A DNA stretch of 64,000 nucleotides from Dictyostelium discoideum (lineage: Eukaryota), in NCBI GenBank assembly GCA_000004695.1, contig CM000152.2:5184001-5248000 (forward strand), given 5' to 3'. A program made the position numbers and the translations under genes. Of this stretch, positions 16,691 to 21,201 are shown piece by piece. Within the stretch, counting starts at the first letter, position 1. Each line of letters starts with the position of its first letter. A model generated the notes under the pieces. The model was not told the DNA's origin, made no database searches, and saw nothing but the letters and a program-made list of their open reading frames with translations.

Positions 16691-17407
16691 ATGCCTTCAT
16701 TAACTAATAATAATAATTCAACAATTACTAGTAATAATAATTCAAATAATACTCCAACAATGATTAAACAAAATATTTTTCAACATGGTGAACAATTAGA
16801 TAAAGTCCCAGAAGGTACAAATGTTTTAATATTTCATCATCGTTTTAATCAAGTGATTAAACAAGGATATATTCCAGACACTGTCACACATATTGTATTT
16901 GGATCATTCTTTAATAGACAAATTCAATTAAATACAATTCCAAATGGTGTTAAATTCTTACAATTCGGATACTCATTTGATCAAGCTTTGATTCCAGGTT
17001 CGCTTCCAGACTCTTTACAACAATTAACATTCGGTGATATGTTTAATAAACCAATTGAAGAGAATACAATTCCATCCTCTGTTATTAAATTGGTATATGG
17101 TGAAAACTTTTATCAAGAATTAAATTCAAATTCTGTTCCATCTTCCGTAAGATTATTAAAATTGGGTTCATATAATAAACAAATTAAAGATTTAAAAAAA
17201 GGTTGTGTTGCTCAAGATAAAATCATTTCTTTGAAAATTAAAGGTCAAAGATTACCATCATCAATTGAACAATTATCTTTTGGTTGTGGTTTTAATCAAC
17301 CAATTCCAGATGATTTAATTTCTCCAAATTGTAAAATAATTTTAGTACCACAAACTTGTACTTTTAATTCTTCTTCAATTTATTCTGATAAAATTAAATT
17401 ATTTTAA
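16691..17407 (+). CDS. FNIP-repeat-containing protein, 238 aa
   Basis: Repeated FGxxFNxxI..xxIPxSVxxLxFG units typical of dictyostelid FNIP repeats. Single ORF. Its last ~9 codons fall inside duplicated segment copy 1. Confidence 0.8.
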   Translation: MPSLTNNNNSTITSNNNSNNTPTMIKQNIFQHGEQLDKVPEGTNVLIFHHRFNQVIKQGYIPDTVTHIVFGSFFNRQIQLNTIPNGVKFLQFGYSFDQALIPGSLPDSLQQLTFGDMFNKPIEENTIPSSVIKLVYGENFYQELNSNSVPSSVRLLKLGSYNKQIKDLKKGCVAQDKIISLKIKGQRLPSSIEQLSFGCGFNQPIPDDLISPNCKIILVPQTCTFNSSSIYSDKIKLF

Positions 17408-18172
17408 AAAAAAAAAAAAAAAAAACAAAAAAAAAAAAAAAAATTTAATTATTATATATATAAAAAAAACATGTACATTAGTAAACAAATTAAAATTGTA
17501 TTTATATAAAAAAAAAAAAAAAAAAAAAGTAATAAAAAAAAAAAAACTTTGTCGACAATAAAATTTTATTTTTTTTTACATCTTAAAAAAAGTTAACAAT
17601 TTTTTTTTAATTTTTTTTAATTTTTTTAATTTTTTTATTTTTTTCTTTTATTTTTCCATATTGGTAATTTTAACTGATATTAGTTTTGTTTACCTGTTAT
17701 TTGGATTTATTTTTATTTTTATTTTTTTTTATATCTTTTTTTTTCTATTTAAAATTTAAGAGTAGTATAAGGAAAGTAGCTTAAAAAAATTTTATTTCTT
17801 TTTTTTTTTCTTATTTTTTTATTTAAAAAACTTTTTTTTTTTTTTTTTTTTTTTTTTTTTTTTTTTTTTTTTTTTTTTTTTTTTATTTATTGATAAAAAT
17901 CAAATCAAAAAAAAAAAAAAAAAAAAAAAATTATAAAAGCATAAATCATTCCACTATTATCTTTAATTGTACAATTGTTTATTGTTGTAATTTTTAATTT
18001 TTCATTTTTTATTTTATTTCTTTAACTAAAAAAAAAAAAAAAAAGAAAAAAAATAATAAAATAAAAAAAAAGAAAAAAAAAAATGGATAAAGTTTTATCA
18101 CATTTAACAAGTGGTCATATTTTAATTAATTGGTATTGTTAATATTGGTGTACTTAAAACAGCAGTATCGAT
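17379..18172 (+). repeat. Segmental duplication copy 1 (~0.8 kb). Contents: FNIP 3' end, intergenic region, and a degenerate RhoGEF start (MDKVLSHLTSGHILINWYC*).
   Basis: Aligns colinearly with 20348..21201 at roughly 85% identity, with indels mostly in A/T runs. Conserved blocks include catgtacattagtaaacaaattaaaattgtatttatata, ggtaattttaactgatattagttttgtttac and agtagtataaggaaagtagct. Contains a T(62) homopolymer at 17823-17884. Confidence 0.85.
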
Positions 18173-18408
18173 TTTATGAGAATTAGTTTCTTAATTATTC
18201 AAAAAAAAAAAAATTAAATCGAAAAACTATACATATATGGAATTATGAGTTGTGTTGTTTATCAAATTATTTGAAAAAAAAAAATATTTAAGTTTTTTTT
18301 TTTTTTTTTTTAATTTAAAAATATATCATTTAATATAAAAAATTCATTTATTTTACAAAATATATCAACTCGTTTTCTTTTTTATTTATTTGTATAAGAA
18401 AAAAAAAA

Positions 18409-19061
18409 TGGGAAACGTTATTTCATTTGAATTTATTGATAATAATATGCAACCATTAGTATATGATAAATTTGAAAATAGCGGAGAAAGGTAGAAAGTA
18501 ATAAAAAAGATTGTTACTTGGTAATTATTTATAAATGAAAAAAAAATTATATTTGTTTTTTATGTGTATTAATATTTATTTTTTTATTTATATTTATAGG
18601 TATTATATGAAGGTAATACTAGTAATGAAAAGGGTAATTACCACACAAGTGTAGTTACTGATGTTTATGGTCAATCTACTTCAAAGACAATTAATGGTTT
18701 AGTTGGTGTTGAAACTCATCTTGTTTATTTAGAAGACAAACAAAATTTAGGATTACAAAATAGATTTTACATACCAAGCAACCATTATCAACAAAAGGTA
18801 TTTTTTTTAGGAAAGTCAAACCAAATTCCAGATCGTGTAAATCTTGTAAATGCTTTATTTACCAATATGCATTCAGATTATTATGATACTGTTAAGATTC
18901 AAAAGTGGTCTGCAAATAACAATTGCCAAACTTACTCTAAATACATTATCGATAGATTAGGTTTAACATGGCCAGAAGAACTTCAATTTTTACCATTAGA
19001 AAGAGGAAATGTTTTACAATTAGTTGAATTATACAATGACATTAAAAACTCAACTCATTAA
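18409..19061 (+). CDS. Hypothetical protein with an N-myristoylation consensus (MGNVISF...). Two exons; approximate CDS join(18409..~18490, ~18630..19061). The exon-1/2 junction is uncertain.
   Basis: Exon 1 reads MGNVISFEFIDNNMQPLVYDKFENSGE and then hits a stop unless spliced at AG|GTAGAA. A long open frame runs 18599-19061 (...YHTSVVTDVYGQ...NNCQTYSKYIIDRLGLTWPEELQFLPLERG...NSTH*). Weak resemblance to the LRAT/NlpC-P60 H..H..C arrangement, not established. Confidence 0.45.
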
Positions 19062-19576
19062 ATGGTATAATAATGTACATTCTTCAAACAGCTCTATATA
19101 TAAAAATTTATAAATTTCATCATTTCATGTATTTCATCAATCAACAACACTCTTTATAAAAATTTCATTTTTTTCATCAATCAACAAACTACTCTTTACA
19201 ACCAGTTAGAATTTACCAAGTAAAATATTAATAAATTGTTTAGTAGTTTAAAAAAAAAATTAATAGTAAATAAAGTTTAATTGTTTTGGATTTTATTTTA
19301 AATTTTATTTTTATTTTTGTTGATGGTAATAAATCAAATTTTTCTTTAACCAATTTTTTTTAAATTAATTAATTGTTATTATTTTTTTATTATTTATTAG
19401 TTTTTTAAATATGTACATAAAAGTTTAAACCAATATGGTTTTTTTTTTTTTTTTTATATTATCTTTTTTTTTTGTTTTTGTTTTTTTTTTTTTTTTTTTT
19501 TATTCTTTATGACAAGTGATTAATGATTTATAAATAGTATTGATTGATATTTAAACAAGTTTTGAAATATATTATA

Positions 19577-20345
19577 TTAAGAAAAAAGAGTTGAAGTTGT
19601 TGTTGTACTAGTTGTTGTGTTTGTTGTATTATTATTATTTTCAGTTTGATTATTTGTATTAAAATTATTTGTAGTAATATTTGAATCGGAACATTCAGTG
19701 ATTTTAATTGTTTCTTGTGGTCTATTTAGTGGTTTTAAATCGGCATAACTATTGCTACGGAATGAATCACCTTTTGAATTAATTCTAAATAGTTCACCAC
19801 GACTATTTACTCTATCCAACATTGGTGGACGTTTTTCATTGATTAAATCCATCTTATGAGCTTGAGCAAAATCACCAAGAGCCTTCTTGAGAGCATCTTT
19901 ACCTTCGGTCAATAAACCTTGAGTAATTTTTCTAGATGCTGAAAAACTTTTAATCATCATGATGGTTTCGTGTTCTTGTCTCAACAAAGAGAACATTCTC
20001 ATCTTACTAACAGATTTAACATTTGCACGTAATAATTGTCTTTTCTTTTCATCTTCTTCTTTGTTGATAATATCTTTGTGTTCATTCTTTTCAGCCTCTT
20101 CATCATCACAAAGATTCAACAATACCAATAACATTTCAGCAACCTTTTCAGAGATAAATGGCATGGACCAATTAAATACATCCATGAAATTTGGCAACCA
20201 ATAAGGATGTGGTGAACATGTGAATTGATGAATATTGAGAATAAACATTGTTTTCATAACGTAAAACTGCACCCTTGTTATTGTATGCGTCTAAATAATT
20301 TGGTGGTGCGGAAAACAATGTGATAACTGATGGAAATCTGGTTGC
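19577..20345 (-). pseudogene. canA: Calcineurin A (PP2B catalytic subunit) 3' fragment. Covers the end of the catalytic domain, the CnB- and calmodulin-binding regions and the autoinhibitory region. Truncated at the repeat boundary and carries a +1 frameshift.
   Basis: Minus-strand frame A reads [32 protein letters not shown] (cf. human [31 protein letters not shown]). After one extra nucleotide the reading frame continues in a different frame as [43 protein letters not shown], then the calmodulin-binding-like [25 protein letters not shown] and the AI-like [18 protein letters not shown] sits immediately 5' at the junction with repeat copy 2. No phosphatase N-terminal exons occur anywhere else in the window. 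Confidence 0.7.
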
Positions 20346-20347
20346 AT

Positions 20348-21201
20348 TTTATTCTGATAAAATTAAATTATTTTAAAAAAAAAAAAAAAAAAAAAAAAAA
20401 AATATAATTATTATATATAAAAAAAAAAAAAAAACATGTACATTAGTAAACAAATTAAAATTGTATTTATATAAAAAAAATAAAAAAAAAAAACAAAAAA
20501 GTAATAAAAAAAAAAGCTTTGCCGACAATAATATAACAAATAAAATTATTTTTTTTTTTTGACATCTTTAAAAAATATTTTATAATTTTTTTTTTTTTTT
20601 TATTATTTTTTATTTTTTTTACTTTTATTTTTCCACATTGGTAATTTTAACTAATATTAGTTTTGTTTACAACACTGTTTTTGGATTCATTTTTTTTTTT
20701 TTTTTTTTTTTTTTTTTTTTTTTTTTTTTTTATTACCATTTTTTTTTTTTTTTTTTTTTTCTATTTAAAAATTAAGGGTAGTAGTATAAGGAAAGTAGCT
20801 AAAAAGAATTTTATTTCTTTTTTTTTATTTGAAAACAGTTTTTTGTTTTTTTATTTTTTTTTTTTTATTTTTTATTTTTTTTTTTTTATTTTTGTTTTTT
20901 TATTTTGAAATTTTTTTTTTTTTTTGTTACCAATCAAAAAAAAAAAAAAAAAATCAAAAAAAAACCATAATTCATTCCACCATTACCTTTATTTGTACAA
21001 TTGTTTATTGTTGTAATTTTTTATTTTAATTTTTTATTTTATTATTTCTTTAACTAAAAAAAAAAAAAAAAAAAAAAAAAGAAAAAAAAGAAAAGAAAGA
21101 AAATAAAGAAAAAAATGGATAAAGTTTTATCACATTTAACAAGTGATCATATTTTATTAATTGGTATTGTTGGTATTGGTGTATTTATAACAGCAGTATA
21201 T
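20348..21201 (+). repeat. Segmental duplication copy 2 (~0.85 kb). Carries the last FNIP codons (..SDKIKLF*), intergenic sequence, and the functional 5' end of the RhoGEF gene.
   Basis: See copy 1. Begins with ttttattctgataaaattaaattattttaa (= FNIP C-terminus) although no FNIP gene precedes it. Continues into the intact RhoGEF ORF. Confidence 0.85.

Follow-up and report, generated by a model that had tools for sequence, protein, structure and literature searches.

The window we analyzed is a 64,000-nucleotide stretch of the Dictyostelium discoideum AX4 genome. Within it, an FNIP gene (DDB_G0281971) is followed by an orphan gene (DDB_G0281973), a 3' fragment of the calcineurin A gene canA (DDB_G0281975), and a RhoGEF gene, and a direct repeat of about 0.8 kb brackets the orphan gene and the canA fragment. 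Overall, the locus is a real and fairly ordinary structural rearrangement. The duplication is present in the strains AX4, ACTFIY (FIY), ACTFIW (FIW), and ACTFIR (FIR). The features are as follows, in window coordinates:

16691 to 17407, plus strand: intact FNIP-repeat gene DDB_G0281971, 238 amino acids (Pfam FNIP, E = 1.4e-36)
17379 to 18168, plus strand: repeat copy 1, with the last 29 nt of FNIP and its 3' flank, then a dead RhoGEF upstream region and the first 87 nt of RhoGEF; colinear with 20348-21199
18083 to 18142, plus strand: decayed RhoGEF start, MDKVLSHLTSGHILINWYC and then a stop codon, with a frameshift from a 1-nt insertion (aligned to copy 2 and to five other haplotypes)
18168 to 18169, no strand: junction J1, between RhoGEF nt 87 and the start of the orphan block, ACAGCAGTAT followed by CGATTTT
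18169 to 19318, plus strand: orphan block, ectopic DNA common to the four duplication-bearing strains (homology to L008, L011, and L007)
18408 to 19061, plus strand: orphan gene DDB_G0281973, 170 amino acids; two annotated exons, 18408-18458 and 18600-19061, with an intron between them
19319 to 19503, no strand: AT-rich spacer (19319-19438) and then a T-rich tract (19439-19503), of low complexity
19504 to 19576, minus strand: 3' flank of the relic, the 73 nt past the stop codon, directly adjoining it both in AX4 and in the Logan contigs
19577 to 20347, minus strand: calcineurin A 3' relic, from about residue 345 to the C-terminus of CanA (PDB matches to calcineurin A)
19577 to 20248, minus strand: DDB_G0281975, the annotated open reading frame in the relic, 223 amino acids
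20348 to 21199, plus strand: repeat copy 2, with a 29-nt stub of a second FNIP copy (FNIP', 20348-20376), followed by the RhoGEF upstream region and coding-sequence start, both functional (ATG at 21115)
21115 to 23257, plus strand: RhoGEF gene, two exons, 639 amino acids (Pfam RhoGEF on both exons; gene call in L005)

The product of DDB_G0281971 is identical to XP_640383 from D. discoideum AX4. The intron of the RhoGEF gene contains a (TAT)n microsatellite.

The direct repeat and its single origin

In a blastn comparison, 17366/17379-18168 and 20334/20348-21199 form a single colinear HSP, and this is one of just two long self-repeats in the 64 kb. The copies are 79% identical if gaps are counted (blastn), and their mean column identity is 85% (MAFFT). 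They align with a score of 659 bits, versus a mean of 142 bits for 100 block-shuffles of copy 2 (sd 23, maximum 231) and a mean of 120 bits for 45 AT-rich 850-nt pieces taken from elsewhere in the window (maximum 175). The initial annotation had described a colinear duplication of about 85% identity, in which each copy holds the last codons of FNIP, the FNIP-RhoGEF intergenic region, and about 87 nt from the start of the RhoGEF coding sequence. All of these parts are present (29 nt of FNIP and 87 nt of RhoGEF coding sequence), and the self-comparison of the window bears out the duplication. It had also described copy 1 as retaining only a decayed RhoGEF start and copy 2 as retaining only a decayed FNIP tail; in AX4 these correspond to the remnant at 18083-18142 and the 29-nt stub.

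Nearly all of the divergence between the copies is due to homopolymer slippage. In the non-homopolymer columns, the copies are 95% identical (15 mismatches in 286 columns, or 5.2% divergence). Several perfectly conserved blocks of 30-45 nt had been taken as hints of promoter or ncRNA elements. Because the copies are 95% identical outside of homopolymers, perfect runs of this length are expected (0.948^30 ~ 0.2). When we compared the non-homopolymer columns of copy 1 and copy 2, we found no conservation in the repeat beyond the neutral expectation, and a search of 16-22 kb against Rfam gave no match at E ≤ 1. The conserved blocks need no functional account.

The two copies have different roles. 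Copy 2 runs into the RhoGEF gene in all 7 of the 7 haplotypes, and it supplies the promoter and start that RhoGEF uses. Copy 1 is the 3' flank of FNIP and lies directly upstream of the orphan gene. Between AX4 and FIR, the copy-1 orthologues differ at 6.7% of complex columns, versus 2.0% for the copy-2 orthologues, so copy 1 has evolved about three times faster. In a tree of the repeat copies, the copy-1s and the copy-2s are not cleanly separated, and informative sites are few; gene conversion between the copies is possible.

In both D. citrinum (L006) and D. cf. discoideum ACTFIZ (FIZ; L009), FNIP and RhoGEF are adjacent, single-copy, and separated by about 0.8 kb. This is exactly the ancestral order, FNIP and then RhoGEF, that had been proposed. 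Direct colinear copies around non-local DNA are absent from both of these outgroups. The four duplication-bearing strains are monophyletic (96% bootstrap on both flanks). J1 in FIR is identical to J1 in AX4, and the FIW sequence matches as well, apart from a deletion of about 20 nt across J1. The common junction and the single clade each indicate a single origin. The divergence between copy 1 and copy 2 is close to the divergence between AX4 and FIZ (3.5-5.5% of complex columns). Overall, the duplication is real, old, polarised, and of single origin.

The calcineurin A relic and the orphan gene

The relic (20347 to 19577 on the minus strand, 771 nt) is a truncated piece of calcineurin A that ends at the edge of copy 2, with an in-frame TAA immediately upstream, in repeat sequence, just as the initial annotation stated. 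It matches residues ~295-475 of human calcineurin A (E = 2e-51; PDB matches), and the alignment opens at the last strand of the catalytic core. Across the aligned human residues 296-474, it keeps the CnB-binding helix, the CaM-binding domain, and the autoinhibitory segment, and it has no match to Pfam's Metallophos or phosphatase domain. The relic is 75-76% identical to CanA from Synstelium polycarpum. It also agrees with the printed 445-468 peptide of D. discoideum CanA (the CaM-binding motif) at 21 of 24 residues, with a deletion of one amino acid, and it lacks one NSRGELLRM unit. The earlier description did not mention two further changes: the frame shifts by +1 at 20237-20243, and there is an additional proline codon (SAPPNY).

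The reading frame in the relic is still open for 231 codons. Between AX4 and a sister strain (from the Logan contigs), all 4 of the 4 substitutions in the relic are non-synonymous, and one of them is a premature stop. The relic originated from canA and is not under constraint. In other words, DDB_G0281975, which is annotated as protein-coding (Q54T66), is a frameshifted and unconstrained pseudogene fragment. The parent canA is still the working gene. (Attempts to knock out CanA were unsuccessful; PMC4325849.)

The canA piece might be a 5'-truncated processed pseudogene that landed in a region that was already duplicated. The cDNA could have been made by the reverse transcriptase of a non-LTR retrotransposon, or it could have been captured at a break. 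The relic is indeed truncated at its 5' end, its 771 nt of coding sequence contain no intron, and 73 nt separate its stop codon from an A-rich tract (minus strand, 19503 to 19439) that follows directly on an AATAAA-like motif. But A-rich tracts are ubiquitous in the intergenic DNA of Dictyostelium, no target-site duplication is evident on inspection, and a tRNA gene, which is the usual target of TREs, is absent from the whole window. We regard this origin as plausible, though less likely than not.

Turning to the orphan gene, DDB_G0281973 is an exact match to the annotation P0145. The initial annotation had placed it at 18409-19061; the end stands (the stop codon is at 19059-19061), while the start moves to the ATG at 18408. 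Its orphan status also stands, as it is taxonomically restricted, with just two relatives among 5.8 billion proteins. It has no match in Pfam or PDB, and its AF2 model has a pLDDT of 30. In exon 2, AX4 and FIW have 9.5 synonymous and 12.5 non-synonymous differences (pN/pS = 0.33), versus a neutral expectation of about 4.4 and 17.6, and the gene thus shows moderate purifying selection. In AX4, a 1-nt deletion breaks the ancestral splice phase, and the reading frame no longer fits the ancestral donor at 18491.

Homology to the orphan block extends to window position 19259 in L008 and to 18808 in L011, and it covers 18251-18571 and 19019-19318 in L007. ACTFIZ has a degenerate paralogous copy at an unrelated locus (L010 9993-10726, corresponding to 18439-19259 of the window, 81.6%). 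In this paralogue, the ATG is gone and a frameshift is present.

Are these sequences functional novelties? The orphan might be a working young gene that is transcribed from the RhoGEF promoter of copy 1, and the 223-codon canA frame might be a catalytically dead decoy that is expressed from the divergent promoter of copy 2 and binds CnB/calmodulin. Besides the low pN/pS of exon 2, the orphan's myristoylation-type start, MGN(V/I)IS, is conserved, copy 1 is 240 nt upstream, and a gene model from FIR (P0146) fuses the RhoGEF start of copy 1 to the orphan. However, the orphan is disrupted in both FIR (the 3' half is deleted) and FIY (exon 2 is deleted), the FIZ paralogue is degenerate, and the splice phase is broken in AX4. 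Similarly, the relic has an open frame in which the segments for CnB binding, CaM binding, and autoinhibition can still be recognised, but this must be weighed against the non-synonymous substitutions, the premature stop, the frameshift upstream, and the deletion in the CaM-binding motif. Taken together, these two proposals seem unlikely to us.

It is less likely still that the duplication was raw material for gene birth, by giving the orphan the promoter and 5' exon of copy 1 and giving a canA-tail decoy the divergent promoter of copy 2. If this were true, the chimera predicted in ACTFIR would join the RhoGEF transmembrane segment to the orphan, and the 223-residue regulatory tail of calcineurin A would be a natural decoy for CnB/calmodulin.

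The junction in other strains

At the left edge of copy 2, the second FNIP copy is longer in the sister strains than in AX4, by as much as about 450 nt. FNIP-derived sequence is contiguous with copy 2 from the equivalent of window position 16955 in FIY and from 17293 in FIW and FIR. This implies that the original duplicated unit was longer than the 0.8-kb unit of AX4, which had been taken as the original, and that in AX4 the edge between canA and copy 2 arose secondarily, by deletion or replacement. Nor is the 2.2-kb block a single unit, as had been thought: the orphan block is in all four strains, while the canA half is only in AX4-type strains, along with a patch in FIY. No canA sequence is detectable in FIW or FIR.

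More broadly, the junction region is strain-specific. AX4 has the 3' half of canA; FIY has a permuted canA patch and a fragment of an ATP12 gene (30.8 bits for the Pfam model, versus a cut-off of 27); and FIW has an inverted 5' piece of FNIP (16455-16908). The FIY patch is 48 nt of rearranged canA (33 + 15 nt, with the order permuted), oriented opposite to the AX4 relic, and it abuts FNIP' at a CAAT microhomology. A simple inversion does not explain this orientation. The low-complexity stretch at 19319-19503 has no counterpart in FIW or FIR; it includes a short motif (a T-run and ATA(A/T)TATC) that is possibly common with FIY. On the minus strand, its T-rich tract (19439-19503) reads as A-rich and comes after the 3' flank of canA.

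The model that was implicit in the initial annotation takes the AX4 boundaries as original: one 2.2-kb fragment, with the orphan and canA adjacent at the donor, would have inserted in codon 29 of RhoGEF, with a 0.8-kb target-site duplication. In AX4, the block does lie cleanly between the two copies, and the canA homology stops exactly at the edge of copy 2. Also, FIY has canA-derived DNA at the equivalent position, so canA may match the duplication in age. We nevertheless consider a single insertion very unlikely, because FNIP' extends beyond the AX4 edge in the other three strains, no canA was found near the sole other orphan-like locus (that of ACTFIZ, L010), and the tps8 loci of AX4 and FIY contain no orphan sequence.

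The layout is the same in GCA_054883475.1, an independent assembly of AX4, which differs at 9 sites in 7 kb, all of them in low-complexity sequence. (Homopolymer lengths differ between the two AX4 assemblies, which indicates separate sequencing.) Short-read (Logan) contigs from 4 other sequencing runs cover 19481-20390, across the canA/copy-2 junction (20347/20348), and the orphan block is at the same position in the assemblies of three other strains. A mis-join between AT-rich repeats, so that the 2.2-kb block is not truly between FNIP and RhoGEF, had been raised as an alternative, and long homopolymer runs do flank these repeats, break short-read assemblies, and end the Logan contigs, but with the same structure in the independent assembly, the Logan contigs, and the orthologous junctions of other strains (J1 included, with a deletion in one), the chance of an assembly artefact is negligible.

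Proposed origin and comparison with known systems

The duplication, the insertion, and the relic are all real, in line with the initial idea of a segmental duplication or insertion event that captured part of canA. We think that the locus is probably a fixed, old, lineage-specific complex rearrangement rather than a functional module. The founding event would date to the ancestor shared by AX4, ACTFIY, ACTFIW, and ACTFIR, a clade of the D. discoideum complex, after ACTFIZ split off. A tandem duplication would have covered at least the 3' half of FNIP, and probably the gene in full, together with the intergenic region and RhoGEF up to nt 87, and an ectopic block of about 1.1 kb, with a young and taxonomically restricted gene, would have lodged at the duplication junction. 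The canA piece would have been added at the same time as the orphan block or soon after. It may have arrived in the founding event or by a slightly later capture in an ancestor of AX4 and FIY; the trees of the two flanks disagree.

The most likely mechanism would be template switching in the course of error-prone repair or replication (FoSTeS/MMBIR-like, or else end-joining with filler DNA), a process that yields duplication-insertion-duplication structures along with small inverted or permuted patches. We infer this mechanism and the order of the sub-events, and we propose template switching from the architecture. Each strain would then have eroded differently. AX4 would have kept the 771-nt canA fragment and almost nothing of the second FNIP copy; FIY would have kept about 450 nt of FNIP' and the 48-nt canA patch and gained the ATP12-gene fragment; FIW would have kept the inverted 5' piece of FNIP; and FIR would have lost the 3' half of the orphan.

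As in rearrangements attributed to FoSTeS/MMBIR or filler DNA, non-local DNA lies between two direct copies, the breakpoints are within genes, there are small inverted or permuted templated patches (canA in FIY, the FNIP 5' piece in FIW), and one readable junction has a short microhomology (CAAT). Unlike those cases, this event is old (about 5% divergence between the copies), fixed in a clade, and heavily overprinted by later deletions, so that the original junctions are only partly readable.

As in Pack-MULE or Helitron transduplication, or at Dictyostelium TRE/DRE elements, fragments of unrelated host genes (canA, ATP12, FNIP, and RhoGEF) lie side by side. In contrast to transposon capture, this locus has neither terminal inverted repeats nor a frame for a transposase or reverse transcriptase, and no tRNA gene lies nearby. 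Capture by a transposable element is not supported: the inverted repeats are all low-complexity, the block has no Pfam match, and there was no sign of a transposable element or RNA gene at the locus or of a tRNA in the 64 kb.

Like other pseudogene fragments of single-copy essential genes, whether duplicated or processed, the canA relic is 5' truncated, frameshifted, and unconstrained. Unlike them, it is annotated as protein-coding, and it sits in the junction of a tandem duplication instead of being dispersed alone. Finally, DDB_G0281973 resembles other orphan genes in that it is confined to the D. discoideum complex, has no domain, is short, has one intron, and shows moderate purifying selection. 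Unlike typical orphans, its genomic place differs between strains and it is degenerate in 3 of 5 haplotypes, so it looks dispensable or short-lived.

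A diverged direct duplication

Exact look-ups of six ORFs identify the window as Dictyostelium discoideum AX4. The locus has this layout:

16691-17407: FNIP gene DDB_G0281971, with FNIP repeats by Pfam
17379-18168: copy 1 of the duplicated segment
18169-19318: orphan block, which holds the orphan gene DDB_G0281973
20347 to 19577, minus strand: 3' fragment (relic) of the calcineurin A gene canA, annotated as protein-coding gene DDB_G0281975 (Q54T66, "hypothetical protein", 223 aa)
20348-21199: copy 2 of the duplicated segment
21115-22314 and 22544-23257: RhoGEF gene, with the RhoGEF/DH domain split over both parts by Pfam

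Most of the RhoGEF intron (22330-22485) is a (TAT)n microsatellite of about 50 units. The loci retrieved for comparison contain further arrays of this type, (TAT)n or (ATA)n, one of them at 2100-2300 of the locus from a second AX4 assembly (L005). In the literature that we searched by identifier, we found no mention of DDB_G0281971, DDB_G0281973, or DDB_G0281975.

Copies 1 and 2 form one colinear alignment, with 79% identity counting gaps or 85% identity per aligned column. Both run from the last 29 nt of FNIP across the intergenic region into RhoGEF (nt 1-87); in copy 1, the RhoGEF start is frameshifted (MDKVLSHLTSGHILINWYC*). The alignment scores 659 bits, which is well above block-shuffled copies (142 ± 23, maximum 231) or 45 other AT-rich segments from the window (mean 120, maximum 175), so the two diverged copies that the initial annotation described are real. 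Its description of the locus was accurate, with just two corrections: the orphan's ATG is at 18408, and the relic contains a frameshift that it did not mention. The window's only other long self-repeat is a 310-nt direct tandem duplication (46203-46512 and 46571-46881, 87% identity). It lies within a single ORF (46177-46887; DDB_G0281999, a SnoaL-like domain protein) and is therefore an internal domain duplication.

The arrangement might have been a mis-join between repeats, but a second assembly of AX4 (GCA_054883475.1) has the same order. Over 7 kb, it differs from the window only by 4 homopolymer lengths and at 5 low-complexity A/T sites, which implies that it stems from separate sequencing. 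Also, Logan contigs from four public runs, which were assembled independently, span 19481-20390, including the junction between canA and copy 2, and the junction between copy 1 and the orphan block is present in other strains' assemblies.

Most of the divergence between the copies is in homopolymers. Of the 1,025 alignment columns, 596 touch homopolymer runs of at least 5 bases; 76 of the 91 mismatches fall in these columns, as do 94 of the 126 one-sided gaps. Outside them, identity between the copies is 94.8% (a difference of 5.2%). At that identity, the probability of a perfect 30-nt run is about 0.2 per start, so several perfect blocks of 30-45 nt are expected. Such blocks had been proposed to be promoter or ncRNA elements. 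We reject this idea, as the blocks are expected by chance and have no match to any Rfam family at E ≤ 1.

One origin and shifting edges

With the FNIP protein and the orphan protein as entry points, we obtained orthologous loci from five related genomes. D. citrinum (L006) and D. cf. discoideum ACTFIZ (FIZ; L009) have a single copy, with FNIP, about 0.79 kb, and then RhoGEF, which bears out the ancestral layout that had been proposed. The duplication and the orphan block are present in D. discoideum ACTFIW (FIW; L008), D. discoideum ACTFIR (FIR; L011), and D. cf. discoideum ACTFIY (FIY; L007). The junction between copy 1 and the orphan block (18168|18169; ACAGCAGTAT|CGATTTT) is identical in AX4 and FIR, and FIW has the same sequence minus about 20 nt across the junction.

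A tree of the AP-1 gamma-adaptin gene and one of the downstream flank had the same topology, (citrinum,(FIZ,(AX4,FIY,(FIW,FIR)))). The four strains with the duplication are monophyletic (96% bootstrap), while flank trees disagree about the order within this clade. In non-homopolymer columns, the 5.2% divergence between the copies is close to that between AX4 and FIZ (3.5-5.5%) and exceeds that between AX4 and FIW or FIR at copy 2 (2.0%). Together, the shared junction, the monophyly, and the divergence between the copies indicate that the duplication arose once, shortly after the split from the FIZ lineage.

The two copies have not evolved at the same rate. Between AX4 and FIR, the copy-2 orthologues differ by 2.0% and the copy-1 orthologues by 6.7%, so copy 2 is about 3 times slower. 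This fits with copy 2 being the working promoter of RhoGEF and copy 1 being mostly free to decay.

The assemblies for FIW and FIR are labelled as "Dictyostelium discoideum". They are about 2% from AX4 in flanks that are mostly coding, and the orphan's pS is about 0.10; for the Logan strain, the difference from AX4 is about 0.4%. There appear to be deeply diverged lineages within the named species D. discoideum.

The edges of the duplication in AX4 had been taken to be the original ones, and the other strains contradict this. In AX4, the second copy of FNIP, ahead of copy 2, is reduced to its last 29 nt. In FIY, FNIP coding sequence runs uninterrupted into copy 2 from the equivalent of window position ~16955, and in FIW and FIR it begins at the equivalent of 17293. 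FIW alone has an extra inverted copy of 16455-16908 (the upstream region of FNIP and the first 218 nt of its coding sequence). Because the second FNIP copy is longer in these strains, the founding unit was longer than the AX4 copy: it must have covered at least the 3' half of FNIP, and it probably covered the whole gene. By the same comparison, the sharp boundary between canA and copy 2 in AX4 (20347/20348) arose later, as a deletion or replacement junction.

Nor is the intervening block a single unit, as had been supposed, because the content between the orphan block and copy 2 differs among strains. The orphan block ends at window position 19259 in FIW, 19318 in FIY, and 18808 in FIR. FIY has about 950 nt of unique, GC-richer filler (L007 10992-11943) in place of the distal part of copy 1 and the junction with the orphan block; this filler includes a minus-strand fragment of a gene for ATP12, an F1-ATPase assembly factor (PF07542, 30.8 bits; the Pfam cut-off is 27). 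RhoGEF, canA, ATP12, and FNIP (the last in direct and inverted orientation) have all left pieces here in one haplotype or another, and the locus has undergone repeated rearrangement.

The canA relic and the orphan gene

As the initial annotation stated, the minus strand carries a truncated relic of calcineurin A. It aligns to human CnA with E = 2e-51, and the alignment takes in the last catalytic strand, the CnB-binding helix, the calmodulin-binding domain, and the autoinhibitory segment; Pfam finds no phosphatase domain. There is an in-frame TAA just upstream, within repeat sequence, as well as a +1 frameshift (20237-20243) and an extra Pro codon. The relic is 75-76% identical to CanA from the distant dictyostelid Synstelium polycarpum. 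Two stretches of D. discoideum CanA are printed in PMC7072818 (24 residues from 445 and 20 residues from 529); the relic's counterpart of the 24-residue peptide has 23 residues. Within these printed stretches, VKSVSKM and FSLLRQE are specific to D. discoideum and shared with the relic (Synstelium has VRSVSKM and FSILRQE), so the relic derives from the D. discoideum-lineage gene. Compared to Synstelium CanA, the relic lacks one NSRGELLRM unit. Judging from its sequence, the relic is a decayed copy of canA that begins near residue 345 of 623, which we take to be the total length of CanA.

The frameshift and the extra Pro are also present in the Logan strain. All four substitutions between AX4 and this strain are non-synonymous (I>T, H>Q, A>P, and TCA>TGA, which is a premature stop), and there are three small indels, one of them exactly at the junction. 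This pattern points to unconstrained sequence. Past the relic, a T-rich tract (19452-19497) is 83% complementary to 20375-20420, the poly(A)-rich 3' flank of FNIP that opens copy 2. One low-complexity sequence may thus lie on both sides of the relic, as inverted copies, but in such AT-rich DNA this is indistinguishable from chance.

When was canA captured? FIW, FIR, and FIY have no large match to canA. In FIY, GTTAAATCTGTTAGTAAGATGATGAGAATGTTC lies precisely between the orphan block and the second FNIP copy and encodes VKSVSKMMRMF, which keeps the MM of the real CanA. Next comes AATTTTTACGTGCAA, which in canA is just upstream of GTTAAATCTGTTAGTAAGATGATGAGAATGTTC. This 48-nt patch, whose core matches the AX4 relic perfectly over 22 nt (E = 9e-7), is on the opposite strand, is in permuted order, and adjoins the second FNIP copy at a CAAT microhomology; a simple inversion does not account for its orientation and permutation. 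The patch argues against an insertion of canA that is specific to AX4. It is very unlikely that this gene was captured twice, independently, at one site, so canA DNA was already present in the common ancestor of AX4 and FIY. By these comparisons, that canA-bearing ancestor could have founded the whole clade, in which case FIW and FIR lost the canA DNA, or it could be ancestral to AX4 and FIY only. As for the route, the piece could have come in as cDNA: its 5' end is truncated, it has no intron, and there is an A-rich tract 73 nt past its stop codon.

The orphan status of DDB_G0281973 held up: a search of 5.8 billion proteins gave just two relatives. The first is the orthologue in FIR, whose gene model (P0146, L011 10001-11121) is a chimera in which the first 27 codons, from the RhoGEF start in copy 1 (MNKILSHLTSDHILLIGIVGIGVFITA), are spliced to the orphan exons; the 3' half of the orphan is deleted. 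The second is a paralogue on another FIZ contig (L010), which has lost its ATG and has frameshifts. It lies in a strain-specific segment of about 12 kb that is bordered by tps8 and a DUF7035 gene, and the tps8 loci of AX4 and FIY have no orphan sequence. Because it has no canA neighbour, is strain-specific, and is degenerate, we consider this copy to be a paralogue and not a demonstrable donor.

The interval between tps8 and the DUF7035 gene is a second structurally variable region (L010 3535-16526 vs. L012 10939-12259; about 12 kb is in FIZ and not in AX4 there). Besides the orphan paralogue, the segment contains an HSP70 gene, methyltransferase-like fragments, a thioredoxin gene, and two small ORFs, and parts of it match sequence that in AX4 flanks tps8 on its opposite side.

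In FIW and FIR, exon 1 of the orphan ends with GAA AAA|GTAGAAAGT, in phase 0. AX4 has a 1-nt deletion at the end of exon 1, which puts the ancestral donor (18491) out of frame, and the gene model uses a cryptic donor at 18459, which keeps the ORF. In exon 2, pN/pS between AX4 and FIW is 0.33, with 9.5 synonymous and 12.5 non-synonymous differences, vs. a neutral expectation of about 4.4 and 17.6. The orphan is a real coding sequence, or was one until recently. It nonetheless looks dispensable, as it is broken in FIR and FIY. The orphan has no relative in Pfam or PDB, and its AlphaFold model is unusable (pLDDT 30), so we dropped the idea, from a His...Cys pattern, that it is a diverged thiol hydrolase of the PPPDE or LRAT type.

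How the locus formed and what it offers

Transposon capture can be rejected: the locus has no terminal repeats and no element ORF, and there is no tRNA gene in the window. Instead, direct copies surround non-local DNA, the breakpoints lie within two genes, there are small templated patches, inverted and permuted, and several unrelated genes are represented by fragments. Such an architecture is what one would expect from replication-based template switching or from end-joining with filler DNA. Overall, the locus is a real, old, and clade-specific complex duplication with trapped gene fragments, which is decaying differently in each lineage. The initial reconstruction was right in outline, and not about the AX4 edges being original, the block being a single unit, or the conserved blocks being functional.

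In practice, these results correct the gene annotation in a model organism and supply a natural series in which structural decay is well resolved. DDB_G0281975 (Q54T66) is a dead 3' fragment of canA, that is, a pseudogene fragment, and the model for DDB_G0281973 is doubtful at the splice donor because it leans on the cryptic one. RNAi or antisense constructs or probes that are aimed at the 3' half of canA could cross-react with the relic locus. More broadly, the seven haplotypes form a dated natural series that follows a complex duplication with captured gene fragments from its single origin to its separate decay in each lineage of the D. discoideum species complex, which should be useful for studying structural mutation and the turnover of new genes in an extremely AT-rich genome. 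The locus adds a further case to a known class of event, rather than being a new kind of genetic element.
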